Assembly (NCBI GenBank): GCA_051656605.1
Contig: JBOGCF010000026.1
Location: forward strand, 7,148 to 71,147
Reading direction: 5' to 3'
Origin: Tannerellaceae bacterium
GTDB lineage: Bacteria > Bacteroidota > Bacteroidia > Bacteroidales > CAMTPD01
DNA length: 64,000 nucleotides
Shown here: piece by piece, positions 10,825 through 54,536 of the stretch
How the letters are laid out: each line of letters opens with the position of its first letter
Numbering within the stretch: the stretch's first letter is position 1
Made by a program: the position numbers and the translations under genes
Notes under the pieces: model-generated
What the model saw: the letters and a program-made list of their open reading frames with translations, nothing else
The model's database searches: none
What the model was told of the DNA's origin: nothing

Positions 10825-11199
10825 ATGGAAAAACTAACAGCAGTAGAAGAGGAAGCTATGCTTATCGTATGGCGCCTCGGCGGGGGAGTTACCAAAGACT
10901 TCCTCAATGAATATCCCGAGCCGAAGCCACCGTATACCACATTGGCCTCGGTGATGAAAAATTTAGAACGTAAAGGGTTCTTGCAAACCAAGCGATATGG
11001 GCCCACGTACTATTATTTCCCTCTTATCGACGAGCAGGAATATAAACGCAGTTCCCTTTCGGGGTTTGTAAAAAGATATTTCGCCGACTCGTACAAGTCC
11101 ATGATATCTTTCTTTGTGAAAGACGACAACATCTCAACCGAAGAGTTGAAAGAGATTCTCTCTCACATAGAAGAGGAACAAGAAAACAACACGCATTAA
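10825..11199 (+). CDS. BlaI/MecI/CopY-family winged-helix repressor (module 1)
   Basis: 124 aa. LT..EEEAMLIVWRLG..VTKDFL...KPPYTTLASVMKNLERKGFL is a typical Penicillinase_R fold sequence. Confidence 0.85.
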   Translation: MEKLTAVEEEAMLIVWRLGGGVTKDFLNEYPEPKPPYTTLASVMKNLERKGFLQTKRYGPTYYYFPLIDEQEYKRSSLSGFVKRYFADSYKSMISFFVKDDNISTEELKEILSHIEEEQENNTH

Positions 11200-11210
11200 T
11201 CGAAACGATT

Positions 11211-12623
11211 ATGAATATCGATCTTCTATACTTACTCAAAGTGAACGTGGCTTTGACTAGTTTCTATCTCGTATATAAACTGTTTTTTGGCAAAGACACC
11301 TTTTTCAAATTTCGCAGGGTAATGTTGCTCGCTGGTATTGCATTCGCATTTGTGTATCCGTTTATAGAGCTCAACAACTGGGTGGCAGAGCAGCGAATTT
11401 TTACCGGAGCGGCAGTTTACTACAGCGAGCTGAAAGAGTTTGTGGTAACGGCAGCTGAAGGAAATCAAAGTAACATGCCTCAGATGACCACCTACGCAGC
11501 AGGTCTTTATTTAATGATCAGTTTATTCTTTGCCGTTTTGTTTCTACTCAAGTGCAAAACGCTGGCGCAGATAAAACTGTCGAGTAGCAAGATCAGTCAC
11601 CAGGGCACAACAATGTATCTACCCCGCAAAGAGATGGCGCCATTTTCTTTTTTCGGATGGATCTTTTTAAACCCCGACATGTATTCGGATAGTGAACTCA
11701 AAGAAATCATCAAGCACGAGTCTACTCACTGCAGAGAGTGGCACAGTTTTGATCTTCTGGTCGCAGAATTGGTAAAAATAGCTTGTTGGATCAACCCGAT
11801 AGCATGGTTACTCAAACGCGAAATCGAACAAAACCTCGAGTACATAGCCGACCGCTCGGTCGTGGCATCGGGAGTAGATAAGCGATCTTACCAATACCAT
11901 CTCGTCGAGGTAGCATGCGGAGTTCCGCTTACTACCCTGAATACCGGATTTAATTATTGCAACTTAAAAAATCGAATCATTATGTTGAATCAAAAGAGAT
12001 CAAAGAATATATCAGGAGCAAAATATGCACTGTTTATCCCATTGTGTTTGTCATTTATCGCAGTGAACAACCTAGAAGCGGTAACCCGCATCGCGACGTC
12101 CGTAGTTACAGAAATCAAGGAAGCTCCCGAGATGAAGCCATTTCAGGACTTGACGGCCGCAGTGTTCCCAACCACAGTAAAGACAACCCGCGAAGCCGTT
12201 GAGGTGAGTCCGGTTATGCAAGACCAGAATAAAAAGCAAGAACCTCAAGACGAAGCTTTGGGTGAAGTCTTTGTAACGGTAGAAGATATGCCTGAGTTTC
12301 CGGGAGGACCAGGGGAGTTGATGAAATTTATTGCGAGTCATGTTAAATATCCGGTTGTAGCACAGCAAAATGGAATTCAAGGCCGCGTTGTGGTCGCGTT
12401 TATTGTAAACAAAGAAGGCAAAGTAGTGAAACCTGAAGTAGTGAAAGGGGTAGACCCTTCATTGGATAATGAAGCGATACGTGTGGTAAGCAGCATGCCA
12501 AAATGGAAGCCGGGTTCACAACGTGGAGTACCTGTAAACGTAAAATATACAGTTCCCGTACAATTTAAATTGCAAGGGGATGCAAAAGCAGACTCCGTAA
12601 AGACCGTTAAACCGATTAAATAA
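11211..12623 (+). CDS. BlaR1-like M56 metallopeptidase fused to a C-terminal TonB domain (module 1)
   Basis: N-terminal TM helices and an HExxH motif (HESTHCREWH). C-terminal TonB_C sequence (EDMPEFPGGPGELMKFIASHVKYPVVAQQNGIQGRVVV...VPVQF). Confidence 0.85.
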   Translation: MNIDLLYLLKVNVALTSFYLVYKLFFGKDTFFKFRRVMLLAGIAFAFVYPFIELNNWVAEQRIFTGAAVYYSELKEFVVTAAEGNQSNMPQMTTYAAGLYLMISLFFAVLFLLKCKTLAQIKLSSSKISHQGTTMYLPRKEMAPFSFFGWIFLNPDMYSDSELKEIIKHESTHCREWHSFDLLVAELVKIACWINPIAWLLKREIEQNLEYIADRSVVASGVDKRSYQYHLVEVACGVPLTTLNTGFNYCNLKNRIIMLNQKRSKNISGAKYALFIPLCLSFIAVNNLEAVTRIATSVVTEIKEAPEMKPFQDLTAAVFPTTVKTTREAVEVSPVMQDQNKKQEPQDEALGEVFVTVEDMPEFPGGPGELMKFIASHVKYPVVAQQNGIQGRVVVAFIVNKEGKVVKPEVVKGVDPSLDNEAIRVVSSMPKWKPGSQRGVPVNVKYTVPVQFKLQGDAKADSVKTVKPIK

Positions 12624-12745
12624 AAGCTAGGCTATTTACCGAAAAGGTACAAGCCAGAAAACAAAATGCAGTTGACGGATAGTGGAATACGCTATTTGTT
12701 AACTGCATTACCGCATTCTTTGTTAACAATATTTATTGAATAAAA

Positions 12746-12776
12746 TTTGCGTAGATACGAGGGTTACGTAAGTTTG
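12746..12776 (+). promoter_or_regulatory. Candidate promoter/operator of BlaI-BlaR module 2
   Basis: -33 TTTG (12746-12749), a 19-nt spacer, then -7 TAAGTTTG (12769-12776). The palindrome TTACGTAA (12764-12771) overlaps the -7 box. Confidence 0.5.
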
Positions 12777-12802
12777 TAAAACAGTCAAAATAAAACATAG
12801 TC

Positions 12803-13168
12803 ATGGAAAAACTAACATTTCAGGAAGAAGAAGCGATGCTTATTGTATGGAAACTCGGAGAAGGGGTAATTAAAGATTTTCTACAACATTATCCGGATCC
12901 GAAGCCTCCTTATACAACCTTAGCATCTATCGTAAAGAACTTAGAGCGTAAAGGATATGTAAAAGCGAAGCGATATGGTAATACTTATTGCTATACACCG
13001 CTTATTGAGCAAGATGCTTACAAACGCAACTCGATGTCTAACTTTGTGAATAAGTACTTCGCAAATTCGTACAAGTCGATGGTGTCTTTCTTTGCAAAAG
13101 ACGAGAAGATCTCTGCCGAAGAGTTGAAAGAGATTATGTCGATCATTGAGAAAGAGAACGAACAGTAA
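12803..13168 (+). CDS. BlaI/MecI/CopY-family repressor (module 2)
   Basis: 121 aa, clearly paralogous to 10825-11199 along its full length. Confidence 0.85.
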   Translation: MEKLTFQEEEAMLIVWKLGEGVIKDFLQHYPDPKPPYTTLASIVKNLERKGYVKAKRYGNTYCYTPLIEQDAYKRNSMSNFVNKYFANSYKSMVSFFAKDEKISAEELKEIMSIIEKENEQ

Positions 13169-13185
13169 TATAAAGGCTCTCTATT

Positions 13186-14550
13186 ATGAATTTAGATCTT
13201 GTATACTTTTTCAAGGCGAATATTGCTTTGGCCTGCTTTTATATAATGTATAAACTGTGTTTCAGTAACGATACATTCTTTCATATCAGACGTACCGTGT
13301 TGATATCGGGCATTCTTTTTGCTTTTGCATATCCTTTTATCGTTTTTCATAGTTGGGTAAAAGAGCAAAAGATTCTTTCAAATGCGGCAGACTATTATGT
13401 CGAATTGAAGGAACTGGTTGTAACGTCGACCCAAGCAGATCCGCTTTCATTTCAAAGTATACAAGGCTATCTATTCTACGTTTATCTCGGCATTTCGTTG
13501 TTGTTGGTTGCAAATTTTCTGATCAAGCTCTGCATGCTGTTGCGTATCAGGTTGGCAAGTCAACGCACGCAATATCGCGGAACCACATTGTATGTTCCGC
13601 GTGGCGAGATGGCGCCATTCTCTTTCTTCAATTGGATCTTTGTAGATCCGGCACGCTTTTCGGAAAGTGAAATCAGTGAAGTGGTGCTGCATGAACAAAC
13701 GCATAGCAAGGGCGGACATAGTTTCGACTTATTGATATTAGAGGTGGTCAAGATCTTATGCTGGGTAAATCCGTTTGTATGGCTTTTGTCGAGAGAGGTA
13801 GAACAAAACCTCGAATACATTGCCGACAATGCAGTTGTTTCGTCGGGCATTGATGCAAAAGCATATCAATATCATTTGGTCGAAGTGGCCAGCAATACAC
13901 CTATATCCGTATTGCATACCGGCTTCAACTATTATAACTTAAAGAAGCGCATCCTTGTGCTGAATCAAAAACGATCTAAGCGTATCACGTGTGCAAAATA
14001 CGCATTACTCGTTCCTGTGTGCGTGTTATTTATCGCCACAAATAGCATAGAGACTGTAACCAAGCTAGCCAACTCGATGGTGTCGGAAATCAAAGAGATC
14101 CCGGCGCAGTTAGCAGCAGCTCAACATTTGCCACAAGTGACTTTGCCTCAATTTATGCAAAAAGACAAATCCGAACAACCGGTATCTCTGGTTGTAGAGA
14201 AGCCGAAAGCAAAGCCGCTAGATCCGAATGAAGAGATTTTTGTTACCGTAGAAGACATGCCGGAGTTTCCGGGCGGACAACGTAACCTAATGAGCTTTAT
14301 CGGCAGAAACGTTAAGTATCCGGTTGTAGCACAAGAGAACGGAATACAAGGACGCGTAGTAGTTCAGTTCGTAATCAATAAAGACGGACAAGTAGCCGAT
14401 GCAACCGTTGTAAGAGGAGTAGACCCCTCTCTAGACAAAGAGGCGCTACGCGTGATTAATGCTATGCCTAACTGGAAACCCGGTTCACAGCGAGGTAATC
14501 CCGTAAACGTAAAATACACGGTGCCGGTACAATTCAGACTACAAATGTAA
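13186..14550 (+). CDS. BlaR1-like M56 metallopeptidase fused to a C-terminal TonB domain (module 2)
   Basis: HExxH motif (HEQTHSKGGH) and a TonB_C tail. Paralog of 11211-12623. Confidence 0.85.
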   Translation: MNLDLVYFFKANIALACFYIMYKLCFSNDTFFHIRRTVLISGILFAFAYPFIVFHSWVKEQKILSNAADYYVELKELVVTSTQADPLSFQSIQGYLFYVYLGISLLLVANFLIKLCMLLRIRLASQRTQYRGTTLYVPRGEMAPFSFFNWIFVDPARFSESEISEVVLHEQTHSKGGHSFDLLILEVVKILCWVNPFVWLLSREVEQNLEYIADNAVVSSGIDAKAYQYHLVEVASNTPISVLHTGFNYYNLKKRILVLNQKRSKRITCAKYALLVPVCVLFIATNSIETVTKLANSMVSEIKEIPAQLAAAQHLPQVTLPQFMQKDKSEQPVSLVVEKPKAKPLDPNEEIFVTVEDMPEFPGGQRNLMSFIGRNVKYPVVAQENGIQGRVVVQFVINKDGQVADATVVRGVDPSLDKEALRVINAMPNWKPGSQRGNPVNVKYTVPVQFRLQM

Positions 14551-14585
14551 CACACAAAACAAGTATACATGGTATCCATGTTGAG

Positions 14586-14620
14586 GCGGATAGGAGGTTT
14601 ACTCTTATCCGCTTTTTATT
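14586..14620 (+). terminator. Intrinsic terminator after BlaR module 2
   Basis: 11-bp stem GCGGATAGGAG / CTCTTATCCGC (one G:U), loop GTTTA, then TTTTTATTT. Confidence 0.85.
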
Positions 14621-14868
14621 TGTGGCACGGTGAAATACAATAAGCCGCTTTCGGGCGAAAAGGAAATCGGGTTTCGAGCATGCCAAAACAAGGTTGTTTC
14701 GATGATTTTAGCTCCTAGATTGCAGAACTCCGGTGTTTTTTCACCTTCGGAAAACGGCCTTTCCGCATTCCTCAAATCTCCCTTTTACGAGTCTCTTCCC
14801 TCTTTTGCGCGGCATCATCGCTTCGTACAGGTGGTTTTGAGGTATAAAAACGCCAAAAAGCATGCAAG

Positions 14869-15066
14869 GTTCTTGCAAAAAGGTCGTTTGGTTCTTATGA
14901 AAACGTTATTTGGTTCTCATAAGAACGTCGTTACGTTTTCGTGGAGGGTGTAAATTGTCTTCGAGGAAAACAAAAATAGTCTTCGCGGACATTTCCAGAA
15001 CTCTTCGTGGTGAATCAATTTACTCACCGTGAATACTTTTCTCACTCACTGCGGTGACTGAATGTA
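14869..15066. repeat. Phased 22-bp degenerate tandem repeat, at least 9 units, core GTCTTCGNGG
   Basis: Units start at 14869, 14891, 14913, 14935, 14957, 14979, 15001, 15023 and 15045. All begin (G/C)T(C/T)(T/A)(T/C)C(G/A)NG(G/A) when stacked by eye. Degenerate TTCG-containing copies continue across 14640-15400. Confidence 0.7.
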
Positions 15067-15469
15067 CGCACCATGCGTGCCGAGAAAGGTATGTGTGATC
15101 AATAAGGCACGTTGTTTCGTTTTGGCTGTGCTCACTGTCCCGATACCCTGGATGCTCAGACCAAAGCCACTGAGAGAGAGTTTGCCAAATCAAAAGGAAA
15201 GAGCAAGTACCCGATTTGTAAGATAATGAAAGCAGGTTTCGAATGTCGTTATAGGCAACGTTCGGTATCGGTTATCGCATAGCCTAAAATTGCGGCAATA
15301 CGTTAGATTTAAAACGATTCGATTTTTGGGTCATCTAGCGAAAAAATGCCCTTTTCGGTGATGAAAAGCGTCTTTTGCCGTTTGATTCCTTTTCGGGCAA
15401 AATAATTGGTTTTTTACAATAAGGTGCGGCCAGGCAAGATCGGAAATGAAACGATGAGGGTATAAACGC

Positions 15470-15510
15470 AAAAGAGGGTAACAGGCATCACGCCTCCCCC
15501 TCTTTTTATT
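15470..15510. terminator. Bidirectional terminator closing the etf/phn block
   Basis: Stem AAAAGAGGG / CCCTCTTTT with an inner GGC/GCC pairing. T-rich on both strands. Lies 55 nt downstream of the etfA stop. Confidence 0.65.
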
Positions 15511-15564
15511 TTCGACTTTTGAAAAACTTCCTACTCGAGGAATCTCTGTATAATCAAAGAGCTA

Positions 15565-16761
15565 TTAAACGTTTGCTCCTAAAATCTGTATCAATTCAGG
15601 CACAATCTCTTGTGCGTTGCCCACGATGCCGTAATGTGCCATCTCGAAGATCGGCGCGTCGGGGTCGTTGTTGATCGCTATCACCGTCTCCACATGATTC
15701 ATGCCCGACGTGTGTTGTATCTGTCCGCTGATGCCGCAGGCAATATACAAGCGCGGTGAAACACTTTTGCCCGTTTGGCCTACCTGCCGATCTACCGATA
15801 TCCAGCCCGCTTCTACGGCAGCGCGCGAACCGGCCACCATTCCGCCGAGCAAACCGGCTAGTCGTTCCAGGTTTCCAACGTGCTCTTTGCCTTGTATGCC
15901 TTTGCCGGCCGCGATCAATACGTCGGCATCTTCGATACGTTGCTTCGGTGTGGTGTCGGCATGCTCTTCGAGCAAGGTAACGCCATCGTTGAGCAGAGCC
16001 GTGTCAAACGCATGTTCGATGAGCAGACCTTTACGGTTGAAGTCGGGCGTTTGCGCTTGCATCACGCCCGGACGCACCGAAGCCATCTGCGGACGGTGAT
16101 GAGGCGTTTCGATCGTAGCCAGCAAGTTGCCACCGAAAGCGGGACGTTGCTGAAGCAAGTTGCCCGTTGCGTTGTCGATACGAAGCTCGGTACAGTCGGC
16201 CGTAAGACCGGTTTGCAATCGCGCCGCCGCACGTGCCGAAACTCCGCGTCCAAAGGCTGTAGCACCAATCAAGATAACCGACGGTTTGTAGCATTGCGCC
16301 AAATCGGCCAATACCTCGGCATGTCTGTTTTCGAGCATTGCGTCGAGTCCGTCATGGTTGGCGTGGTAGATTTGATCCGCACCGGAAGCAATCAGCTCGT
16401 TGCGTATCGCGTCGCTACAGGTACCAAGCACCACGGCCGATACGATCTCGTTATTTTGTTGTACCAATTCGCAGGCCTTGCCCAGCAGTTGTAGCGTAAC
16501 GGGATTTACGGCACCGTTGTTGAGTTCGCACAGTACCCAAATGCCGGCAAACTGTGACAAGTCGTCTGCCGCTGCGTTGGCGGTTTCGATCGTGATTGCT
16601 TCTGTAGGACATTCCGAGACGCAAGCGTTGCAAAGCTGGCAGGCATCTGCGTCTACTTCGGGGTATTCGCCCATCGAAAGGGCATTGTAACTACAAGCCC
16701 CTACGCATGCTTCGCATTGGATGCACGCGGTTGTATCTATATGTAACGGATGAACTTTCAT
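15565..16761 (-). CDS. etfA: Electron transfer flavoprotein alpha subunit with an N-terminal 2x[4Fe-4S] ferredoxin domain
   Basis: N-terminus has CIQCEACVGAC and CQLCNACVSECP (two CxxCxxCxxxC motifs). The C-terminus is an EtfA FAD domain (LYIACGISGQIQHTSGM, VIAINNDPDAPIF). Confidence 0.88.
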   Translation of the reverse strand: MKVHPLHIDTTACIQCEACVGACSYNALSMGEYPEVDADACQLCNACVSECPTEAITIETANAAADDLSQFAGIWVLCELNNGAVNPVTLQLLGKACELVQQNNEIVSAVVLGTCSDAIRNELIASGADQIYHANHDGLDAMLENRHAEVLADLAQCYKPSVILIGATAFGRGVSARAAARLQTGLTADCTELRIDNATGNLLQQRPAFGGNLLATIETPHHRPQMASVRPGVMQAQTPDFNRKGLLIEHAFDTALLNDGVTLLEEHADTTPKQRIEDADVLIAAGKGIQGKEHVGNLERLAGLLGGMVAGSRAAVEAGWISVDRQVGQTGKSVSPRLYIACGISGQIQHTSGMNHVETVIAINNDPDAPIFEMAHYGIVGNAQEIVPELIQILGANV

Positions 16762-16762
16762 A

Positions 16763-17533
16763 TCAAACGGTTTCCAAGGTTTTGATCAATGTGGCGAGAT
16801 CTTGTACGGTTTCAAACATGCGCACGCTGCCTGCTCGTTCGGGCACACCGGTGCGTACCACGCGGGTAGGTGAGCCAGCCAGTCCGATTTGGTCGGGATT
16901 CACTTGCAGGTCGGCCAGTCCCCAACGGATCAGCGGCTTGGTTTGCGCTGCCTCCCACCGGCGAATGGTAGGATGAGGAAGCTTGTTGGCTTCTTTGGTT
17001 ACGGTAACAGCGCACGGAAGCGTAACGCGAAGCTTTTGCACACCACGGTCGGTCCGTTTTTCCAGTGTAATGTCTTTGTTGCTAAGTTCGCAAATGCGTA
17101 CCAGATCGGTAAGCTGCGGCAGGTTGAGTTGTGCCGCTACACCCGGCCCCACCTGTGCCGTGTCGCCATCAATCGCTTGCTTGCCAAAGAGCAAAACGTC
17201 GCCCTTGCCCAGTTTGCGCACGGCGGCGGCCAATATCGCGCTTGTACTCCATGTATCGCTTCCTGCAAAGGCGCGATCGGAAAGCAATACAGCTTCGTCG
17301 GCTCCGAATACCATGGCTTCGCGCAGCGCGGCTTCGGCTTGCGGCGGTCCCATGGATACAACGGTGATGGTGCCGCCGGTTTGTGTTTTCATTTCTACCG
17401 CCGCTTGCAGTGCGTGCAAGTCATACGGATTTACTTGTGCCTTTGCGCCGGCACGTACCAGCGTATTGGTTTCCGGATCGATGTATATATTGGTTGAGGC
17501 GGGAACCTGCTTGATAAAAACGATATATTCCAA
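16763..17533 (-). CDS. etfB: Electron transfer flavoprotein beta subunit (anaerobe/bifurcating-type signature)
   Basis: MEYIVFIKQVP... and LLFGKQAIDGDTAQVGPGVAAQLNLPQ. The start codon is TTG at 17533. Its stop is 1 nt from the etfA start. Confidence 0.88.
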   Translation of the reverse strand: MEYIVFIKQVPASTNIYIDPETNTLVRAGAKAQVNPYDLHALQAAVEMKTQTGGTITVVSMGPPQAEAALREAMVFGADEAVLLSDRAFAGSDTWSTSAILAAAVRKLGKGDVLLFGKQAIDGDTAQVGPGVAAQLNLPQLTDLVRICELSNKDITLEKRTDRGVQKLRVTLPCAVTVTKEANKLPHPTIRRWEAAQTKPLIRWGLADLQVNPDQIGLAGSPTRVVRTGVPERAGSVRMFETVQDLATLIKTLETV

Positions 17534-17635
17534 AACGATACTCTTTTATCGGGAAAACTTCTTTCGGCTTCATAACGAAGGAGGAGAAGTTTCGGTTGTG
17601 TTAAGTTCTATTACTCTCTGTAGCGCGTTGCGTGA

Positions 17636-18865
17636 TCAGCCGCCCTTTTTGTTGGAACGTGCATCGGCACAACTCTTTTGAAAGGCAGGGTCGAACGGAT
17701 TGATCGCGCCGAAACGTTCGGGATCGAACGGTGCCGCGTTTACAAACGTTTCTTCGCCGGTAACGATTTCAGACAAGAGTCTGCCCATTCCTCCGCCTGC
17801 GGCAACTCCGCCACCGCAACAGCCCGAGGAGGTATAAAAGCCCTCCATGGATGAAACGCCACCTATGATGAAGTTGGCATCGGGTACGTAGCACGACGGA
17901 CCTGCCATGTAGTGCGCGATGCCCAGGTCGCGAAACTGCGGAAAGAAAGCCTCAAAGAGGGAAGCACTTTGCGAAAGCGTAGACCAGCCGTTGTCGGGAG
18001 TGAAGTCGACGTGCTCGATGTTTGTTTTCATCTCTTTGGGATCGTACGAAACGCATTCGGGTTCGCGGATGCCCACGATCAGTGCCCCAACATCGGGACG
18101 AGTAAAGGCGCGTGCGTCGGGCAATACGGCAAACGGCTGATTGGCCGGGAAAAGTGTCGGGTTTACTTCCGTGATCCAGAAGTGACTGCGCACAGGTGTG
18201 TGCGGCAAGCCGATGCCCAACGGGAAAGAAAGCAGGTTTGACCATGCTCCGGCAGCATCGATTACCACGGGCGCGTGTATTTCGTCGTTGTTGCTCAGGC
18301 GCACACCCGTAACGCGTTGGTTGCTGTGCAAGATGGTGCTTACGCCGGTACGTGTGCGAACAATCACGCCTCGTTTTTTTGCGGCTTTCGCATAGCCGTT
18401 GCAAAGAAGCGCCGCGTCGATGAATGCGTCTGTAGGCATCCAAACGGCTTCGCGCACCGATGTGTTGTCGATCCAAGGGAGCATCTCCTTCACGGCTTTC
18501 GGTCCCACTATTTCAGCTTCGATGCCAAAACGTTGCGCCGCCATGAGGGTGTCTTCCAGCCCTTTCTTGCTCGCTTCGCTTGCAGAGATGGTAAGGCTTC
18601 CTACTTGTTGCAGGTCGAGCGATTCGTTTAGTTCGCTTTGGATCTCTTCAATGCAATCGTAGGTTTCCTGCACCAGCTCCATCAGTCCCGGTTTGGTGCG
18701 GGCCCGGGTGAGCAGGCATGCGGCGCGACTGGTTGCTTGTGAGGCAATGTCGTTTTGTTCGCAAAGAACGATTTTACCCGCCTTGCGCTTGGCAAGCTGG
18801 TAAGCAGCGGAGGTTCCGAGGAGTCCTCCGCCTATGATAATGATATCTGCTGTTTGTGTTGCCAT
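17636..18865 (-). CDS. DAO-family FAD-dependent oxidoreductase (candidate amine/aminophosphonate dehydrogenase)
   Basis: 409 aa with an N-terminal DIIIIGGGLLGTSAAYQLAK Rossmann motif. The general layout resembles glycine/D-amino-acid oxidase or the sarcosine oxidase beta subunit. It starts 4 nt after the phnW stop. Confidence 0.75.
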   Translation of the reverse strand: MATQTADIIIIGGGLLGTSAAYQLAKRKAGKIVLCEQNDIASQATSRAACLLTRARTKPGLMELVQETYDCIEEIQSELNESLDLQQVGSLTISASEASKKGLEDTLMAAQRFGIEAEIVGPKAVKEMLPWIDNTSVREAVWMPTDAFIDAALLCNGYAKAAKKRGVIVRTRTGVSTILHSNQRVTGVRLSNNDEIHAPVVIDAAGAWSNLLSFPLGIGLPHTPVRSHFWITEVNPTLFPANQPFAVLPDARAFTRPDVGALIVGIREPECVSYDPKEMKTNIEHVDFTPDNGWSTLSQSASLFEAFFPQFRDLGIAHYMAGPSCYVPDANFIIGGVSSMEGFYTSSGCCGGGVAAGGGMGRLLSEIVTGEETFVNAAPFDPERFGAINPFDPAFQKSCADARSNKKGG

Positions 18866-18869
18866 GGAA

Positions 18870-19958
18870 TTATTCAGCTAAAACGGTTGCAACTGCTTGC
18901 GTGAGTGCTTCGAAGTCGCGTGGATGTACATCGCCAATGTTACCGATACGGAAGGTGTTTGCATCGGAAATCTTTCCCGGATAGATAACGAATCCGTGTT
19001 GTTTCAATTGCTCGTAGAATGTAGCAAAGCAGAAATCATCGTTCGGATACAGGAAAGAGGTGATGATTGGTGATTGCTTTTCGTCGCTGAGTAGGGTCGT
19101 ATAGCCCAGGGCTCTCATTCCTTTTACGAGGGTAGTGTGGCTGGTTTGGTAGCGGTTGTAGCGAGCTTCGATTCCGCCTTCTTCTTCCAGTTCTTTCAGT
19201 GCTTGGTGAAAAGCACGCACCACGTGGGTAGGAGAGGTGAAGCGCCACTTGCCTTTTCCTTTTTCCATTTCGTTCCATTGTGCGTACAGGTCTAGCGATA
19301 GTGATTTGGAAACACCCTTGCACGCTTCTAGTTTCTCTTTACGTGCAATTACAAAGCCGAAGCCGGGTACACCCTGAATACACTTGTTGGCACTGCTGAT
19401 CAAGAAATCAATGCCCAGCCCTTTTATGTCGATCGGAATTCCGCCAAAGCTGCTCATTGCGTCTACAATGTAAGTAAGGTTGTGCGCTTTGGCTACTTCT
19501 GCGATGGTTTCTATCGGGTTGATGATGCCGGTTGTGGTTTCGCAATGCACGACCGACAGGTGTGTAGTGCCCGGATATGCTTTAAGTGCTTCTTCAACTA
19601 CGGCAGGAGTCACTTGTTCGGTCTCGTGAAGTGAAACCAGGTTATAGTTGAGTCCCTGATACGTTGCTATTTCGGCCATGCGCGCACCATAGGCACCGTT
19701 GGCAACGATCAGCAGTTGGTCTTCCGGTTTCACGGCACAACCCAATGTTGCCTCTACTGCATACGTTCCGCTTCCTTGCAACAACACGGTGGTGTATTCA
19801 TGGTCAAGCCCGGCTGCCTTTAGCAAGCTTTCGCGTATTTCCGTCACGATACCGATGTTGTAGTCGTTGTCCCACGTGCACCAGTCTTGCAGCATGGCTT
19901 CTTTTACCGATTGAGAAGTTGTAAGCGGTCCGGGTGTAAGTAATAAATAGTTTCGCAT
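18870..19958 (-). CDS. phnW: 2-aminoethylphosphonate:pyruvate aminotransferase
   Basis: 362 aa class-V aminotransferase with the N-terminus [29 protein letters not shown], typical of PhnW. Adjacent to phnX. Confidence 0.88.
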
Positions 19959-19961
19959 GGC

Positions 19962-20777
19962 TTAGTTGTTTGAAGGGTTGATGTTGAGTCTATTATTGAT
20001 GGTCTCGATACATGCCGGTAGTTCTGCGATGGTGTCGATTACGAAGTGTGCGCCGGCTTTTAGCATGCGCGCTCTCACTTCTTCCTTGAGCGGAGTGAGT
20101 TCGTCGGCACTCATGTTGTTTACCTCCTCTTGGGTAAGACCTAATTCACTACTACCCAATACTAGTCCTACGGTCCACGTTTTTGCGTTTACCCCTTCCT
20201 TGATGTCTGCGATGGTATCTCCAACTTTTACAACCTTGTCTGTGCTGTCTACGTTTAGTGCAATCATGTTGTTGTAAATCATGAAAGGTGCAGGTCTGCC
20301 GGCTGGCATGCCTGAAGGAGTAATATAATGGTCTACGTTATATCCCTTTGCTGCTGCGCCCGGTACTACTACGTTCATCATCTCTTGGGTATAACCTGTA
20401 GTAGATCCGATCTTCATACCCTTTTCACGGAGCGACTGCAAGGTGTCGATCACGCCGTCGATTGGTGTAGTGTAGTCACTCAACGACTCGAAAAGGTATT
20501 TCTCGAAGCTTTTGTTCATGGCTACCACATCGTCCATGGTCCAGTCGCGGTTATACTTCGCCTTAAACTGCTCGTTGACCGAAGGCATGGATAGTATCGC
20601 CTTGATGTGATCGATTTTAAGTAGTCCCATCGGCTCGCGGGCCTGACGCGATGTAATGTGTATGCCGTATTCGCCTTCGAATACTTTAATAAATGCCTGA
20701 AGGGGTGCAAAACATCCGTAATCTACGGCCGTACCGGCCCAGTCCATAATAATACATGCTACATTTTTCATGTTCAA
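19962..20777 (-). CDS. phnX: Phosphonoacetaldehyde hydrolase (phosphonatase)
   Basis: HAD-fold protein with IIMDWAGTAVDYGCFAP and the Schiff-base lysine context MGLLKIDHI. Confidence 0.9.
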   Translation of the reverse strand: MNMKNVACIIMDWAGTAVDYGCFAPLQAFIKVFEGEYGIHITSRQAREPMGLLKIDHIKAILSMPSVNEQFKAKYNRDWTMDDVVAMNKSFEKYLFESLSDYTTPIDGVIDTLQSLREKGMKIGSTTGYTQEMMNVVVPGAAAKGYNVDHYITPSGMPAGRPAPFMIYNNMIALNVDSTDKVVKVGDTIADIKEGVNAKTWTVGLVLGSSELGLTQEEVNNMSADELTPLKEEVRARMLKAGAHFVIDTIAELPACIETINNRLNINPSNN

Positions 20778-20817
20778 AAGTCGTTTAGTAAGTAATTGAA
20801 TTTATTTTCTTGGATTG

Positions 20818-22131
20818 TTATTCGATAGAGTAAGCAGGAGTAAACGAAGGCACTCCGTTTTCTTTGCGGTGACGTTGCACAATGTACACGATCGAGAATG
20901 CAAAGGAGATGCAACAAACGATACCTACATAGCCTGCCAGGTTGTTGTAGAAAACCAACCAATCGATGTTGGGACTGCAAAATTCTTTTACAAGCAACAC
21001 GGCTACCGTTCCGGTGTATCCGATAAAATCGATCAGGGCGATAAAGAATCCTACGTTTCCTTTGATCTTGAAGCAAGCGATGAATCGGTCGAAAAAGATG
21101 GTTTGAAACGTAAGGTACGACGTGTACAAACACAGGCTTTGTACGAAGAGCCACGTGAGCGGCGAAAGCTCGAAGCGGCTGTGACCAAATGAGATCACCG
21201 TCATTACCACTGTTCCGATCATTACCATCACCAGTAGGGAGATAAGTGCTTTGAGGTTGTTCTTTACGAAGACCATGAGGCCGAACATTCCCAAGATTAT
21301 CAGCGTGACTACGCTGTCGAGCTGTGCAAAGATCCAGTCTGAGTACATGCTGGTATCGAAGATGTTGACTAAGAAGTCTTCCTTTATATCGCGCAGCACA
21401 ATCAGTAAGAGATTGGCGATGAAAAGCATGGTGAGTACGGGCATAAACTCAAGAAAGAGTTCTTTACGTGCCGACTTGTCGAGGGTTACTCGCTCTGTTT
21501 TCGTTTGTTTGTCGTGCGCGTCGGGATGTGGCAACTTGTTGAGCAAGTAGGCCAGAAGTGCAAGAATTGGTAGTGCAAACGCGCCGATAAAAGCCGGCAT
21601 CCAAAAGTCGCTGATGTGTAATGTATTGGTAACAAATAATCCGACCGACTTTGCCGTGCCCGACGCTACAACGATGCTGATCCCGAGCAGACTGGCAAGG
21701 ATGTCGGTAACGCGACGTCCTTCGATAAAACTGAAGATAACGCCCCACATGCAACCGAGCGACAAGCCGTTGAAAAACATGGCGGCAATGTTGTACGGCG
21801 CGGGGATGAGTCCGTAGGCTACAAGTGAGAGTTGCGCAGCCGTTACGGATGTAAGGATAAACTTAAAGCGGTTCTCCTTTTTTAGTTCCGATATTAATTT
21901 AATACCGATAAACTTAGCAATGAGATATCCGATAATTTGTGTGATGGTTACGATGGTCTTGTAATCGAAGCCAAGTATATCAAGTCCTGCGTAGGTCGAC
22001 GCAGTGTAGGGTTTGCGTAGTGCATAAACTAATGAGTAGGAGAGCAAGGCGGCGCCTCCGGCCCATAGTATAAAAAGGAGATCAGACATTCGTTTATTCG
22101 AATCGATCGTTTCGGTTGCTGTGTTGTTCAT
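20818..22131 (-). CDS. 12-TM MFS-like membrane transporter, putative AEP importer (possibly the DUF5690 family, from memory)
   Basis: 437 aa and highly hydrophobic with multiple predicted TM helices. It lies 40 nt upstream of phnX on the same strand. Confidence 0.6.
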   Translation of the reverse strand: MNNTATETIDSNKRMSDLLFILWAGGAALLSYSLVYALRKPYTASTYAGLDILGFDYKTIVTITQIIGYLIAKFIGIKLISELKKENRFKFILTSVTAAQLSLVAYGLIPAPYNIAAMFFNGLSLGCMWGVIFSFIEGRRVTDILASLLGISIVVASGTAKSVGLFVTNTLHISDFWMPAFIGAFALPILALLAYLLNKLPHPDAHDKQTKTERVTLDKSARKELFLEFMPVLTMLFIANLLLIVLRDIKEDFLVNIFDTSMYSDWIFAQLDSVVTLIILGMFGLMVFVKNNLKALISLLVMVMIGTVVMTVISFGHSRFELSPLTWLFVQSLCLYTSYLTFQTIFFDRFIACFKIKGNVGFFIALIDFIGYTGTVAVLLVKEFCSPNIDWLVFYNNLAGYVGIVCCISFAFSIVYIVQRHRKENGVPSFTPAYSIE

Positions 22132-22295
22132 ATATGTATTTTATTTCTATTTTCTTTGTTTCGACAGCAAAAGAATCGATTGTGTATTACAGGCTTGTTA
22201 CACGAGTGTGTCTGTTTTGTTTCCTGATAAGCAGGTGGTTAAGTTTAATAGTTCTGAAAGGTTTCTGTTATGGTTTTGTAACAAGGTGGGCGTGT

Positions 22296-22344
22296 AGAAA
22301 AAGAAATCCCTGCCGGTTAGCGATCGAATCTAACCGGCAGGGAT
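22296..22344 (-). terminator. Strong intrinsic terminator between porin paralog 2 and the transporter
   Basis: Perfect 15-bp stem ATCCCTGCCGGTTAG / CTAACCGGCAGGGAT with a 9-nt loop. On the minus strand it is followed by TTTCTTTTTC. Confidence 0.85.
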
Positions 22345-22367
22345 GTGTCGTATTTGTATTGTTGCTT

Positions 22368-23432
22368 TTAAATGATAGCGAAAAACCAACGGAAACCTGC
22401 AAGAATGCGGTTCTGATTGTTAGGGTTATAACCTGTGATTGCTTCGTTGTAGTGGGTGCGGCAAAACGCATACGCCAGGTGTACGTTTAGTTTGTCGCCT
22501 CCCAAGGGGTAATATTCCAATAATGTGGAAGCTGTATATTTATTGTAAATAGTGAGTGAATGATCTTTGTCGCGACGCTTGTCCCACATCCCTTTTACGC
22601 CGAATGCCCACCGGCGTTGTTTCCCCATAAAAAGTTTGTAGGAAACGATGGCCGTTTGGTCGTTTGCCATATACAGCGTGTTTTCATTCCACGAGGCCGG
22701 TTGGTAGTAGGCTCCGTTCATATAATCTACTTCGAGGGTCGATGATCCCAGTATCAGCTGATTGCCAACGGTGATCCATTGTGTCGTTTTGCCTTTGTCT
22801 ACGTTGGTAAGCATGTATCCGTAGCGGGTATTGAATGCGCCGTTGCAGAAAGAGCCTGCCCACATGGCGGCATAGTTGAAGGCGTAATCGTAGTCGGGCG
22901 CGGCAAACTGCGGAGCTCGTGCATCGGTGATTTGCAGGTTGAATTCCTGGTTGCGCACGGTGTACGCTGCTCGGATTCCGGTTTCGTATGCCTGAATCAG
23001 GTTGTTGGGTTGCGAGAAGAAGTAAAGCGTGGACGTGTTGTAGTTGTATTCGAATGTGCCGAGTTGCACGATTTGTTTCCCGGCCTCGATGCGCCAACGT
23101 TGCGTGGGACGGTAGATGAGCATGGCATAATCGGTGGCGGCAAGAAAGTTGTCTTTCGATACACTTCCCGACTTGTTGAGTCGCTGCCGTATGAGGTAGC
23201 CGAGTTGGGGCGAGAAGTCTCCTTCGAGAACGACGCGGAAAGTGGTTGCCTTGAATGCGGCATTGTTCTTTTCCCGGTTGTTGATACTGCCGTCGAAGTC
23301 GATACGTAAGTCAAGTTTGATGGCATGTTTCTCTTTGTTGAAAACAGAGTCGAGGCTAAAAGCTTGTGCCTTTTCGGTGATAAATAAAAATGAACACAGG
23401 GTTAGTAGTGTGTACGATAATGTGTGTTTCAT
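22368..23432 (-). CDS. Outer-membrane porin-like beta-barrel, paralog of 7182-8378
   Basis: Signal peptide MKHTLSYTLLTLCSFLFITEKAQA. Collinear similarity to the ansB-linked porin (RIDFDG..AAFKA..F+.VL.GD..P...YL+RQRLNK.G...KDNFLA.TD). Confidence 0.6.
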   Translation of the reverse strand: MKHTLSYTLLTLCSFLFITEKAQAFSLDSVFNKEKHAIKLDLRIDFDGSINNREKNNAAFKATTFRVVLEGDFSPQLGYLIRQRLNKSGSVSKDNFLAATDYAMLIYRPTQRWRIEAGKQIVQLGTFEYNYNTSTLYFFSQPNNLIQAYETGIRAAYTVRNQEFNLQITDARAPQFAAPDYDYAFNYAAMWAGSFCNGAFNTRYGYMLTNVDKGKTTQWITVGNQLILGSSTLEVDYMNGAYYQPASWNENTLYMANDQTAIVSYKLFMGKQRRWAFGVKGMWDKRRDKDHSLTIYNKYTASTLLEYYPLGGDKLNVHLAYAFCRTHYNEAITGYNPNNQNRILAGFRWFFAII

Positions 23433-23459
23433 GGAAAAATAGAGTTACTACAAATAAGA

Positions 23460-23489
23460 AGCCGCATTATCCAATGGAGTAATGCGGCT
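23460..23489 (-). terminator. Terminator after the FAD protein gene
   Basis: Perfect 10-bp stem AGCCGCATTA / TAATGCGGCT with a 10-nt loop. T-rich downstream on the minus strand. Confidence 0.7.
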
Positions 23490-23496
23490 GGGTATA

Positions 23497-25065
23497 TTAA
23501 GCGTTTGTTTTCGAGTACTGTTCCGTTATGCTTTCGGCACAACGTTCGCCGTCGATAGCGGCCGATACGATTCCGCCTGCATATCCGGCACCTTCACCAC
23601 ATGGGTAAAGTCCTTTGATGCGGATGTGTTGCAAGGTTTCTCTGTCGCGCAGGATACGAACAGGGGCAGAAGTGCGACTTTCCACGCCGATCATTACGGC
23701 TTCGTTGGTAAGGAAACCGTGCGACATTTTACCGAATTGCTTGAATCCGTCGCGCAGGCGCGATGTTACGAACTCCGGCATCCAGAAGTGAAGCGGAGAG
23801 GCAAGCAGACCCGGTGCATACGACGACTCGGGAAGATCAAATGAGTTCTTCTTGTTTACGAAGTCGACCATACGTTGTGCCGGTGCGGTTTGCTTCATGC
23901 CGCCGTTGAGCCAGCATAGTTCTTCGAGATGCTCTTGAAACTTCAATACGCAAAGCTCTTCGTGCTCGGCGTAGTCGGTAAGGTCTTCGGGACGCACTTC
24001 AACAACCATTCCTGAGTTTGCCCACTTTGATCCGCGGCGTGATGCCGACATTCCGTTCACAACTACTTGGCGCGGAGCGGTAGAAGCCGGAACGACTACA
24101 CCACCCGGACACATGCAGAATGAATAAACGCCGCGTCCGTTGGCTTGCGTTACAAAGCTGTATTCGGCAGCCGGAAGGTATTTTCCGCGACCATCTTTCG
24201 AGTGGTATTGGATCTGATCAATCAGCTCTTGCGGATGTTCGAGACGTACACCTACGGCAATTCCTTTGGCTTCGATCTCTACGCCTGCTTCTTTTAAGTA
24301 ATAATATACGTCGCGTGCCGAGTGACCGGTTGCGAGAATAACAGGGCCATTAAACGTGGTTCCGTTTTGTGTTTCGATACCGACAACTTCATCCTTCTCG
24401 AAGATCAACTTGTCCATACGTGTTTCGAAATGTACTTCTCCACCGCAACGGATGATGGTGTTGCGCATGTTTTCGATAATGCCCGGCAACTTGTCTGTTC
24501 CTACGTGCGGATGCGCGTCCATCAAGATTGAAGTGGAAGCGCCGTGTTGGCACAGGATATTCAAGATGCGGTCTACTGATCCGCGTTTTTTGCTACGGGT
24601 ATATAGTTTGCCGTCAGAGAACGCTCCGGCTCCACCTTCACCGAAACTGTAGTTCGACTCCGGGTCTACCAGGTGTTCGCGACTAATGCGTGCGATGTCT
24701 TTGCGACGGTCGTGTACGTTCTTTCCTCGTTCGATCACGATTGGGCGCATGTCTGCTTCGATCAAGCGGAGCGCGGCAAACAATCCGCCGGGACCCGCAC
24801 CTACTACGATTACGGCAGGCGCATTCGAAACATCTTTATAATCGATCGATGTATATTCTGCATCGGTAGGCAGTTCGTTGATGTATACACGAACTTTTAG
24901 ATTGATAAAGATGGTACGCTGACGTGCGTCGATAGAACGCTTCAGGATACGTACGGCTTTGATGTTTTTAGGAAGTATGTCGTGCTCTGTAGCAATGTAT
25001 TCTTTCAATTGCTGTTCTTGAGCGGCTATATGCGGTAATACGCGTAATTGAAACTCTTTTGTCAT
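23497..25065 (-). CDS. NAD(P)/FAD-dependent oxidoreductase (COG2509-like uncharacterised dehydrogenase)
   Basis: 522 aa with VIVVGAGPGGLFAALRL. The overall layout matches the conserved FAD-dependent protein family. Confidence 0.7.
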   Translation of the reverse strand: MTKEFQLRVLPHIAAQEQQLKEYIATEHDILPKNIKAVRILKRSIDARQRTIFINLKVRVYINELPTDAEYTSIDYKDVSNAPAVIVVGAGPGGLFAALRLIEADMRPIVIERGKNVHDRRKDIARISREHLVDPESNYSFGEGGAGAFSDGKLYTRSKKRGSVDRILNILCQHGASTSILMDAHPHVGTDKLPGIIENMRNTIIRCGGEVHFETRMDKLIFEKDEVVGIETQNGTTFNGPVILATGHSARDVYYYLKEAGVEIEAKGIAVGVRLEHPQELIDQIQYHSKDGRGKYLPAAEYSFVTQANGRGVYSFCMCPGGVVVPASTAPRQVVVNGMSASRRGSKWANSGMVVEVRPEDLTDYAEHEELCVLKFQEHLEELCWLNGGMKQTAPAQRMVDFVNKKNSFDLPESSYAPGLLASPLHFWMPEFVTSRLRDGFKQFGKMSHGFLTNEAVMIGVESRTSAPVRILRDRETLQHIRIKGLYPCGEGAGYAGGIVSAAIDGERCAESITEQYSKTNA

Positions 25066-52436: not shown

Positions 52437-53663
52437 ATGACATTTGCAGATCTTCAACTCAATCAACGCATCCAATCTATCCTTTCTACGCAAGGCTTCG
52501 ACACGCCCACGGCAATACAGACCGAGGCGATTCCCGTGATTTTAGGGAATCACGACGTGCTGGCAAGCGCGCAAACGGGCACCGGCAAAACGGCGGCCTT
52601 CGCGCTTCCTATCCTGCACAGTCTTGAATTGTCGGCATCACGCGGAGCATTGAAAGCATTGATTTTGGCGCCTACGCGTGAGTTGGCTTTGCAAACCTAC
52701 GAGAGTATGCAACAGTGGATGGAGGGGAGTGATCTGCAAATGGCGGTGATCTACGGCGGAGTACCGTACGAAACGCAAATCGAAGCGCTTGGCAACCGCC
52801 CGGATGTCATTGTGGCTACGCCCGGTCGCCTGATCGACCTTTGGGAACAAGGGTATATTTCATTCTCCGATCTCATGTATTTTATACTCGATGAAGTGGA
52901 TCAAATGCTCGATCTTGGCTTTCAAGAAGCCATCGGCTTGCTTGCAAAGCAAAAGCCCGAGGCGTGTCGTTCGCTTTTCTTTTCGGCTACCATGCCGGCA
53001 GAGATCAAAGCTCTTGCCGACGCGATACTGAAAGATCCGGTTTATATTGCCGCTGCTCCGGTGGCTTCTACACTCGAAAACATCGACCAGTCTTTGTACT
53101 TTGCCGAAAGGGATATGATGGACAACTTGCTGATTCACCTAGTGCGCAAGTCTGGTTTCTCGTCCGGAATGGTTTTTACCCGCTCGCGCAAAGTGGCCGA
53201 TATACTGGCTTCGCATCTTACCGATGCAGGGTTTCCGGCCGAAGCCTTTCATAGCGACCGCAGTCAGGCCGCACGCGAATACATCTTGGGTCGTTTTAAG
53301 TCGGGCGAAACCAAACTATTGGTCGCTACCGATATCGCGGCGCGCGGCATTCATGTCGACGGACTTAGCCACGTGTTTAACTATGGTTTGCCGCAAATGT
53401 CGGAGACCTACATTCACCGTATCGGGCGCACCGGCCGAGCGGGGGCTTGCGGAATCGCACTTACGATTGCCGAGCCGCAGGAATATGGTATGTTTACCGA
53501 GGTTCAAAAACTCATGAAGCGCAGCGTGCCTGTGGTAGGAAACCATCCGTTCGTAACGCTTACTTTGCAAAAGGCGCTAATGGATGTGGTGGAGAAACAA
53601 AATAAACCCAAGCCGGCCGCAAAGGGAAGCAATAACAAGAAGAAGCGTTACCAACGACGCTGA
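52437..53663 (+). CDS. DEAD-box-family RNA helicase (motif II is DEVD)
   Basis: TAIQ, AQTGTGKT, PTRELA, ILDEVDQM, SAT, HRIGRTGRAG. 408 aa with a short Lys-rich tail. Confidence 0.9.
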   Translation: MTFADLQLNQRIQSILSTQGFDTPTAIQTEAIPVILGNHDVLASAQTGTGKTAAFALPILHSLELSASRGALKALILAPTRELALQTYESMQQWMEGSDLQMAVIYGGVPYETQIEALGNRPDVIVATPGRLIDLWEQGYISFSDLMYFILDEVDQMLDLGFQEAIGLLAKQKPEACRSLFFSATMPAEIKALADAILKDPVYIAAAPVASTLENIDQSLYFAERDMMDNLLIHLVRKSGFSSGMVFTRSRKVADILASHLTDAGFPAEAFHSDRSQAAREYILGRFKSGETKLLVATDIAARGIHVDGLSHVFNYGLPQMSETYIHRIGRTGRAGACGIALTIAEPQEYGMFTEVQKLMKRSVPVVGNHPFVTLTLQKALMDVVEKQNKPKPAAKGSNNKKKRYQRR

Positions 53664-53708
53664 TCACGGCATCGAATAACGGCAGTTTTCATATAGATTA
53701 AGCCTTGT

Positions 53709-53810
53709 GCCCCGGGGCTCCCATCTTTGCGAGCCCCGTGGTTCGTATTTGCGTGGGCCCACACAAAGACTGACCAGGGCCCACAACCATCTTTGCGTGG
53801 GCCCACGCAA
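53709..53810. repeat. Cluster of GC-rich extragenic palindromes (REP-like)
   Basis: Contains GCCCCGGGGC (53709-53718) and hairpin GGGGCTC[CCATCTTTGC]GAGCCCC (53714-53737). Also the near-palindrome TTTGCGTGGGCCCACACAAA (53748-53767) and hairpin GGGCCCAC[AACCATCTTTGC]GTGGGCCC (53777-53804). A perfect 18-bp palindrome TTGCGTGGGCCCACGCAA lies at 53793-53810. Confidence 0.75.
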
Positions 53811-53893
53811 GGTTTAGTTGTCACGTAGTTTATGCTTGTTTATTGTACGATGCGTTTCTAATCGTCGATACGAACGTCTTTATATATAGAAGT

Positions 53894-53942
53894 AAAAAAT
53901 CCCGCCTGTAAGCATTTATTACGATGCTTTCAGGCGGGATTA
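53894..53942 (-). terminator. Intrinsic terminator of the DUF3127 gene
   Basis: Stem AATCCCGCCTG / CAGGCGGGATT with inner AAGCAT/ATGCTT pairing. A T6 run follows on the minus strand. Confidence 0.85.
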
Positions 53943-54000
53943 TTTATGTTTAAATCCAAAAAACGTTTGGCAAAGCTATGGCGTTTGCGTTGGTTTTTGA

Positions 54001-54348
54001 TTAGAAAGGAAGATCATCTTGCTGTGCAGGTTCCAAAGGCATATCGTTGAAGTCTGGCATTGGTGATCCGGCCGGAGCAGCATTTTCTTGTCCTTCGATG
54101 TTCCAAGCTTTTAGATCTGTATACCATCTTCCGTTATACTCGCGACTCTCTACGTCAAAATCGACAGAAACGGTTGAGCCTATCGCGAATGATTCCACAT
54201 TAAACTTGTCTCCCCACAATGAGAAGCAAACTTTTTTAGGATACTGATCTTCGGTTTCGATCACAAAGTTTTGCTTTTTCCATACCCCATTGCGTCCTTC
54301 GCCTGTTTGTGTAGGCAGAACCAAAATCATTTTACCGGAAATTTTCAT
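54001..54348 (-). CDS. DUF3127-family small protein (OB-fold-like), function unknown
   Basis: 115 aa. MKISGKMILVLPTQTGEGRNGVWKKQNFVIETEDQYPKKVCFSLWGDK matches my recollection of Bacteroidetes DUF3127 proteins. Confidence 0.7.
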   Translation of the reverse strand: MKISGKMILVLPTQTGEGRNGVWKKQNFVIETEDQYPKKVCFSLWGDKFNVESFAIGSTVSVDFDVESREYNGRWYTDLKAWNIEGQENAAPAGSPMPDFNDMPLEPAQQDDLPF

Positions 54349-54536
54349 TCTCTAAGATTTATATAAATATGAATAGTTTCATCATTTGTAAAGAAAAACA
54401 AATTAACGTTATCTATCTAATACAAAATAAAAGACGTTTGTTATAAAGAAAATCGCTAATCATTACTCAGCGCGAGTATGCAAAGATAAGAGATTTACCG
54501 TTTATATAGATGTTCAATAAATATAATTAGAGAGAT

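Follow-up and report, generated by a model that had tools for sequence, protein, structure and literature searches.

What is encoded by, or bound to, a phased repeat that lies between the 3′ ends of two converging genes? The question was raised by a 64,000-nt stretch of DNA (the window; positions are counted within it) from an uncultured Tannerellaceae bacterium (GenBank assembly GCA_051656605.1, contig JBOGCF010000026.1, forward strand), in which a gap of 1014 nt separates the converging genes blaR (+ strand) and etfA (− strand). An original prediction, made by a model from the letters alone, had described 944 bp of this gap (14621 to 15564) as non-coding and built from a degenerate 22-bp repeat, and had proposed a cooperatively bound DNA array or a structured RNA. 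The gap was found to contain an array of ten head-to-tail 22-nt units in exact register (14869 to 15088, + strand). The array exists, is non-coding, has its register and core positions under purifying selection and is confined to one clade; we regard it as a genuine orphan element that selection maintains within this clade. As to its role, our best guess, which is a tentative one, is that of a phased DNA array bound cooperatively by a protein.

All nine units of the original prediction were recovered at their positions, and a tenth, CGCACCATGCGTGCCGAGAAAG at 15067, stays in the 22-nt register. In an autocorrelation of 14869 to 15066, the share of matches at lag 22 was 54.5% (z 7.9); the z was 6.8 at lag 44 and 2.4 or less at every other lag, and none of 1,000 sequences simulated from an order-1 Markov model (matched in dinucleotide frequency) reached the observed autocorrelation maximum. 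The predicted periodicity of this stretch was significant by autocorrelation and simulation together. When the sequence was stacked at a period of 22, the ten best columns held 11.05 bits, compared with 4.47 ± 0.88 bits at random placements; stacking at periods of 19 to 21 and 23 to 25 gave 2.8 to 4.9 bits. The array is the most periodic 200-nt stretch within the window. Tandem Repeats Finder reported only 2.8 copies (14868 to 14929), a low count due to the degeneracy of the units, which are identical to one another at 2 to 16 of 22 positions and have their information concentrated in positions 1 to 10.

This 22-nt periodicity is real but local. To the left of the array (14621 to 14868), lag 22 had a z of 2.9, which was not significant after correction for all lags (P = 0.11), and the z to the right (15067 to 15564) was 0.8. 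With a weak signal on one side and none on the other, the repeat therefore makes up ~220 bp (14869 to 15088) and not 0.94 kb, so that the description of the whole gap as repeat-built holds for the array and fails for the rest of the 944 bp. The looser TTCG copies that had been described across the gap are present and enriched on the + strand (16 on the + strand versus 3 on the − strand, with ~5.8 expected), but outside 14938 to 15004 they are out of the 22-nt phase.

Could the repeat be part of a gene? The absence of a convincing open reading frame (ORF) from the gap was confirmed, the region being non-coding by unphased substitutions, broken frames and an ORF that lacks homologues. This ORF, of 107 codons (14630 to 14953), had been suspected of being spurious; it had no Pfam match, a search of 5.8 billion proteins yielded no homologue, and relatives do not keep its frame intact. 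The same protein search gave no support to the frame-shifting repeat proteins in Bacteroides annotations that the original prediction had mentioned. Relative to the most distant full-length relative, substitutions by codon phase numbered 29/12/86 in blaR and 30/12/81 in etfA, and an excess at third positions was absent from every segment of the gap; variable columns of the gap in ten sequences were distributed 63/47/56. The idea that the region encodes a protein, or a recent pseudogene, possibly with unusual reading, draws on the best-kept minus-strand frame. When 1.84 billion representatives were searched by HMMER with the translation of 15023 to 15190 in this frame, one protein was detected, P0245 (E = 6.5e-9), and the frame has only ~2 stops in 145 codons in four relatives. 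However, P0245 (a public entry of 178 aa) is a gene call made at this very locus in a close relative, an L062-like strain, and one to three in-frame stops are present in every other lineage tested. The shortage of stops was not significant (P = 0.06 to 0.08, in one of six frames), amino-acid identity in the frame (~73%) equals that expected from 14% random nucleotide change, no Pfam domain was detected in the frame, and the gap lacks the 3-nt phase seen in blaR and etfA. The gene call itself (minus strand, 15023 to 15459) was possible since two in-frame stops happen to be absent from one strain. A coding role is effectively refuted.

Selection was assessed by comparison with relatives. Scans of genomes and of metagenomes each yielded one close relative, L003 (an uncultured 'Porphyromonadaceae' metagenome-assembled genome) and L059 (a crocodile gut co-assembly), and further contigs came from members of the 90% EtfA cluster. 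For both flanking genes, identity in protein searches jumps from at least 90% to 56%; hence, the clade is isolated, and the comparisons are among about five closely related lineages of a genus-level Tannerellaceae clade with at least 80% identity. Every recovered contig that spans the gap has the order blaI-blaR, gap, etfA, with gap lengths of 1014 to 1221 nt, and in 14853 to 15459 the relatives are 76 to 97% identical among themselves and 80 to 97% identical to the window. The neutral yardstick was the variable share of 4-fold degenerate sites in the same six representative sequences, which was 0.32 in etfA and 0.43 in blaR. In the array (14869 to 15088), 17% of columns vary versus 32 to 43% of 4-fold sites (P = 3e-7), and no indel was detected in 248 aligned columns among nine relatives. 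Variation within the units is itself periodic, as only 1 of 50 columns at unit positions 1 to 5 varies, compared with 36 of 170 elsewhere in the units (Fisher p = 5e-4). The exact register has persisted without indels despite drift of the units to identities of 2 to 16 of 22, and the spacing is therefore under selection. The predicted 22-nt phasing is both real and kept by selection, as judged from the lack of indels and from variability below that of 4-fold sites.

Constraint in the gap is patchy. Uniform strong constraint over the whole 615-nt segment was ruled out, as only four islands are constrained after calibration to 4-fold sites; after this calibration the absence of indels is informative for the array only. 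The leftmost spacer, 14621 to 14852, is neutral or faster (variable columns 0.49) and is followed by a constrained segment at 14853 to 14902 (0.04, P = 1e-6), a neutral one at 14903 to 14946 (0.45), which runs from the end of unit 2 to the start of unit 4, and the most conserved part of the array at 14947 to 15081, which comprises units 4b to 10 on the + strand (15 of 135 columns, 0.11, P = 1e-8 against 4-fold sites of etfA). Beyond the array, neutral segments at 15082 to 15166 (0.31), 15277 to 15375 (0.34) and 15426 to 15459 (0.50) alternate with a second, aperiodic island at 15167 to 15276 (19 of 110 columns, 0.17, P = 4e-4) and a third island at 15376 to 15425 (6 of 50 columns, 0.12, P = 1e-3). 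By this yardstick, therefore, no non-coding part of the gap other than the terminators is as constrained as the array.

A functionless origin has to be weighed against these data, namely, an old tandem duplication that is decaying and whose apparent conservation is local variation in divergence due, for example, to recent recombination between lineages. Stepwise duplication predicts a gradient of similarity between neighbours, as is observed (units 1 to 3, 4 to 7 and 7 to 9 are closest to one another); local neutral rates do differ by flank (4-fold variability of 0.32 in etfA versus 0.43 in blaR), the array part at 14903 to 14946 evolves neutrally, and no copy or function was found elsewhere. 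What such decay does not readily produce is variability of 4% (14853 to 14902) and 11% (14947 to 15081) beside neutral segments within 250 bp, since P values of 1e-6 to 1e-8, even relative to the lowest of the neutral estimates, are hard to obtain through recombination history alone. Neither the periodic conservation within units (p = 5e-4) nor a register left intact after extensive divergence of the units would be expected, and we consider simple decay unlikely.

The units themselves fall into three sub-families. Units 1 to 3 have the form GTTCTYRYRA.AAC, each being an imperfect 14-bp palindrome; units 4 to 7 have the form GTYTTCGNGG / CTCTTCGTGG; and units 8 to 10 have the form CTCACYGYG / CGCACCATG. 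In the L060/L065 lineage, unit 3 has turned into a fully palindromic sequence, GTTCTTGCAAGAAC, and unit 4 has a rewritten core, GTTGTCACGA. Stacks of the units of relatives showed that the 12-nt halves originally described as variable are conserved too in units 5, 7, 8 and 10. A possible decayed further unit, GTTGTTTCG (15108 to 15119, + strand), is invariant in relatives and lies on the 22-nt grid two periods beyond unit 10 (grid position 15111), although its likeness to the core of unit 4 requires a 1-nt indel. Close to it, the window lacks a single nucleotide at 15159, a private deletion, an extra C being present in 9 of 9 relatives.

What property of the array has been selected? We infer that it is protein binding to duplex DNA. 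The array would be a cis-acting DNA element with ten recognition patches (unit positions 1 to 5 plus 9 and 10) set 22 bp, or about two helical turns, apart. A sequence-specific DNA-binding protein would occupy these patches cooperatively, and an extended, gently spiralling nucleoprotein complex would result, in the manner of iterons or operator arrays. As both neighbouring genes end at the array, its purpose would not be promoter control but titration, a roadblock or the organisation of structure. The exact register and the periodic conservation fit helical phasing on duplex DNA and are not required by any RNA model; in addition, RNA structure is weakly backed and no transcription signal was found in the gap. 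Precedents for such an arrangement are the direct-repeat operators predicted in Bacteroides and the 22-nt iterons of lambdoid origins, both described below. The original prediction that the cores all face one side of the DNA holds only approximately: each 22-bp step turns by ~34 degrees at 10.5 bp per turn, and the ten cores would therefore spiral through about one full turn.

Several observations weigh against this DNA-binding role. A candidate gene for the binding protein was not found adjoining the array, and a BlaI operator was ruled out because the ATACGA-N5-WCGTA sequence of the blaI promoters is absent from the array. The position between two 3′ ends leaves no promoter to control. The units form three dissimilar sub-families, whereas a single protein usually binds arrays of much greater uniformity, and in units 5, 7, 8 and 10 conservation extends over the whole 22 nt and not the core alone. 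Two conserved islands to the right of the array and the terminator-like hairpin at its left edge would suit a transcript better. Finally, the small number of closely related lineages limits inference.

The hairpin in question marks the left edge of the conserved segment (14853 to 14877, − strand), where a terminator scan detected an A-run and then the hairpin TGCAAG-GTT-CTTGCA. On the minus strand, from 14877 to 14853, these letters read as a small hairpin of terminator type with TGCTTTTT after it; its stem at 14863 to 14877 is invariant in 9 of 9 sequences, and conservation starts at the adjoining run. A close alternative, only slightly less probable than the DNA array, is that the array forms the 3′ portion of an orphan minus-strand non-coding RNA that ends at this hairpin and U-run. 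Such an RNA would be a free-standing transcript or a long 3′ untranslated region of the etf operon, would start between 15380 and 15460, and would carry repeated CCNCGAAGAC-type motifs as multiple binding sites for protein or RNA, in a sponge-like fashion. The coincidence of the left edge of conservation with a terminator-like hairpin and T-run is consistent with this proposal, as are conserved islands that span ~600 nt (up to 15425), insertions in relatives at 15459 that lie just beyond this span, the short T-run of the etfA hairpin on the minus strand and the strong strand asymmetry of TTCG (16 versus 3). On the other hand, about half of the 600 nt is neutral (14903 to 14946, 15082 to 15166, 15277 to 15375 and 15426 to 15459), and the exact 22-nt spacing of the units is left unexplained.

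Folding data were similarly divided. For 14831 to 14980, folds had z scores of −4.2 to −4.7 on the minus strand (structure conservation index, 0.88 to 0.97) and were weaker on the plus strand (z, −2.8 to −3.6; index, 0.73 to 0.88), and the fold of 14850 to 14932 had a z of −5.4 on the minus versus −3.0 on the plus strand. An inverted repeat, I4 (14891 to 14926), detected as a repeat and also in folds, pairs the cores of units 2 and 3 through 14-nt arms with an 8-nt spacer. The third island includes a hairpin, TTTTGCC...GGCAAAA, followed by a T6 run (helix 15374-15379/15396-15401). Inverted repeat I4 holds the one pair of the region that is clearly compensatory, a change from T-A to C-G at 14898/14919 (UA, 4; CG, 4; CA, 1), whose intermediate is a wobble on the minus strand only. 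Against an RNA, covariation was minimal: RNAalifold found 1 to 5 compensatory pairs among 62 to 151 predicted, with a covariation term of ~0, in ~5 lineages at ≥80% identity, and individual wobble changes favour different strands, some of them the plus strand. A thermodynamic structure signal is absent from most of the proposed span, with z scores below −2.8 in 14831 to 15010 only and scores of −2.4 to +1.7 outside units 1 to 3. The evidence for RNA structure is weak and favours neither strand.

Searches for families and promoters were negative. No Rfam 15 family reached its gathering score in the gap, the sole match even at an E value threshold of 10 being one at E = 8.7 (chance), and a tRNA/tmRNA search of the gap detected none. 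The gap contains no sigma-70-like promoter and no conserved Bacteroidetes promoter of the TTTG/TAnnTTTG patterns; the TA of the sole TAnnTTTG box within it is lost in the L060/L065/L073 lineages, and a second match, at 14549, falls in the blaR coding sequence.

Does the array belong to a known class of repeats? Iterons of theta-replicating plasmids and lambdoid phage origins, such as the seven 22-bp iterons of the R6K gamma origin and those of the lambda origin, are likewise non-coding head-to-tail 22-bp repeats whose spacing aligns bound proteins along the helix, and the array shares with them the presence of at least three direct repeats of 17 to 22 bp in helical phase. In contrast to iterons, which are nearly identical to each other, the units of the array share only ~10 nt (2 to 16 of 22). 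Iterons also adjoin a rep gene, an AT-rich unwinding region and DnaA boxes on their replicon, while the array has no initiator (rep) gene beside it, its flanks being BlaR/TonB_C and fer4-EtfA and its neighbouring genes metabolic. Unlike the iterons of plasmids, phages and integrative and conjugative elements, the array lies on the chromosome, at a site whose synteny is kept in relatives, and it has no similar counterpart in plasmids or phages. A replication origin (oriC) at the array was ruled out, as the cumulative GC skew does not turn at this position.

Bacteroides AraC-type hybrid two-component system (HTCS) regulators have predicted direct repeats ~21 bp apart, read as monomers placed on one face of the DNA (Ravcheev et al. 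2013, PMC3878776). These operators come from the same phylum and have a mean of 21 bp between centres, compared with 22 bp here, but they consist of two sites upstream of polysaccharide utilization locus operons beside the regulator gene, whereas the array has ten sites between gene ends; no AraC-type/HTCS regulator was detected among the 16 neighbouring ORFs scanned (6085 to 26489). The array thus works most like iterons or operator arrays, yet it is a member of neither class.

Other classes are more distant. Sponge RNAs of the CsrB/RsmZ type are likewise free-standing non-coding loci with many short motifs ~20 nt apart, a likeness that fits the minus-strand RNA, although CsrB motifs are CsrA-dependent hairpin loops at irregular spacing and the array has exact spacing with weak hairpin support. 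To our knowledge, Bacteroidota are not known to have CsrA. Repetitive extragenic palindromic (REP) elements and bacterial interspersed mosaic elements are likewise intergenic at 3′ ends, and several array units are small imperfect palindromes; REP elements, however, are dispersed in many copies per genome, while within the 64 kb the array motif is confined to this one place. A separate family is present within the window at 53700 to 53810, where three GC-rich palindromic REP-like elements of the TTTGCGTGGGCCCACGCAAGG type lie in an 874-nt gap (53663 to 54537) and also give a weak lag-22 signal. A CRISPR (clustered regularly interspaced short palindromic repeats) array has identical repeats of 23 to 50 nt and unique spacers that differ between strains, and this identity was ruled out by the degenerate 10-nt core and by 'spacers' that are conserved among relatives. 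A type III toxin-antitoxin RNA (ToxI-like), which has near-identical 34- to 40-nt tandem repeats followed by a toxN/abiQ-type gene, was ruled out by degenerate units of 22 nt and the lack of a conserved ORF in the gap. An inverton was also ruled out, as the long inverted repeats I1 and I6 are not kept in relatives.

Copies elsewhere, which a dispersed family would have, were not detected. The core matched the window outside the array 27 times versus 25 expected, a chance frequency; nhmmer searches of the 64 kb with the conserved segment found nothing but the segment itself; blastn gave no match to PLSDB plasmids or phage records; and three viral pattern scans detected only unrelated lambdoid iterons and chance matches. 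These iterons, of 22-nt period, were recovered by the two-core pattern of the array. They belong to about 40 related phage contigs of 45 to 50 kb (L004 and L007 to L058) with three or four iterons, GTTTTCGGGGATCCCTTTCCCT, at a 22-nt spacing and of lambdoid origin type, which were found only because the core GTTTTCGGGG is shared by chance. An element that travels with the etf/phn operon was ruled out, as the operon of L078 (EtfA 56% identical) has a dissimilar 520-nt spacer.

These searches also bear on whether the array could be what is left of the end of a mobile element or of a recombination arm, that is, of phased sites for a transposase or for integrase/Xis at the border of the GC-rich phn/etf island. 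Transposase-binding repeats of 22 bp are found at the ends of Tn7 and Mu. The gap does adjoin a compositionally distinct operon (GC, 0.46 to 0.55 versus ~0.42), and a replacement and an insertion flank the conserved segment in relatives. Pfam searches of the 16 ORFs between 6085 and 26489, however, detected no transposase or integrase, the window contains no inverted partner array, the closest other copy of the operon (L078) is without the element, and neither a plasmid nor a phage matched. Purifying selection would not be expected of a relic, and this origin appears very improbable.

The replacement is at 14770 to 14845, where the L069/L059 lineage has an equally long stretch that is unrelated; a hot spot of local recombination adjoining the array is suggested by this. 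It lies in the fast-evolving spacer of 14621 to 14852, in which 49% of columns vary in six lineages and which holds most of the spurious 107-aa ORF together with a few small conserved islands (GGTTTCG and TTTTTCACCTTCGGAAAAC). The insertion, a purine-rich low-complexity sequence (GGGAGGAGGGTGATGGGAAGAGG...) at 15459, lies between the conserved segment and the etfA terminator and adds 67 nt in L060/L062 and 206 nt in L065/L068.

Both terminators of the original prediction were borne out. The intrinsic terminator of the BlaR/TonB_C gene (14583 to 14615, + strand), detected in the terminator scan as a 14-bp stem followed by a T-run and invariant in relatives, is the left border of the gap and lies outside the element. 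The terminator hairpin of etfA (about 15470 to 15506, − strand) has stable folds on both strands (z, −3.7 and −3.8), with a good T-run on the + strand and only a short one on the minus strand, and as read from these letters it could terminate transcription in both directions.

The flanking genes were assigned from Pfam matches, and an exact match of EtfA places the window in a Tannerellaceae metagenome-assembled genome. The left gene (13186 to 14550, + strand) encodes a BlaR-type M56 peptidase fused to a TonB C-terminal domain. It belongs to one of two tandem blaI-blaR(TonB_C) pairs (10826 to 14550) whose BlaR proteins are 56% identical. In both blaI promoters, ATACGA-N5-WCGTA overlaps a TAnnTTTG −7 box and is a candidate BlaI operator, which belongs to a widespread Bacteroidota blaI-blaR system of unknown function. 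The right gene (15565 to 16761, − strand) encodes a ferredoxin-fused EtfA (fer4-EtfA) and is the last of an operon for a HAD hydrolase, a class-V aminotransferase, a DAO-type oxidoreductase, EtfB and EtfA, with a GC content of 0.46 to 0.55 versus ~0.42 in the surrounding DNA. This GC-rich operon (15565 to 25065), which also includes DUF5690 and porin O/P genes and whose gene order recurs in L078, looks like an acquired aminophosphonate-type catabolic island.

In its most far-reaching form, a proposal to which we attach a low probability, the array would be an undescribed chromosomal cis element of Bacteroidota that serves either as a ten-site, 22-bp-phased pad for the helical filament of a dedicated protein or as a multi-site RNA sponge. 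Its role would lie outside replication and promoter control, for example, in titration of a regulator or as a barrier between converging transcription units, and it would have arisen by tandem duplication in one genus-level Tannerellaceae lineage.

The conserved non-coding elements of uncultured gut Bacteroidota are almost unexplored. The importance of the array is limited in that, as far as seen, it occurs in one small clade, has no link to a known phenotype and comes from an uncultured organism. Nevertheless, exact spacing on a helical scale and periodic conservation that has outlasted heavy drift point to a specific macromolecular partner. Bacteroidota are, as far as we know, a phylum without the Csr and Hfq paradigms of classical systems. 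Identification of the partner would reveal a new kind of DNA-binding system, whose architecture is an extended array, or else a regulatory RNA of a new, multi-site kind.

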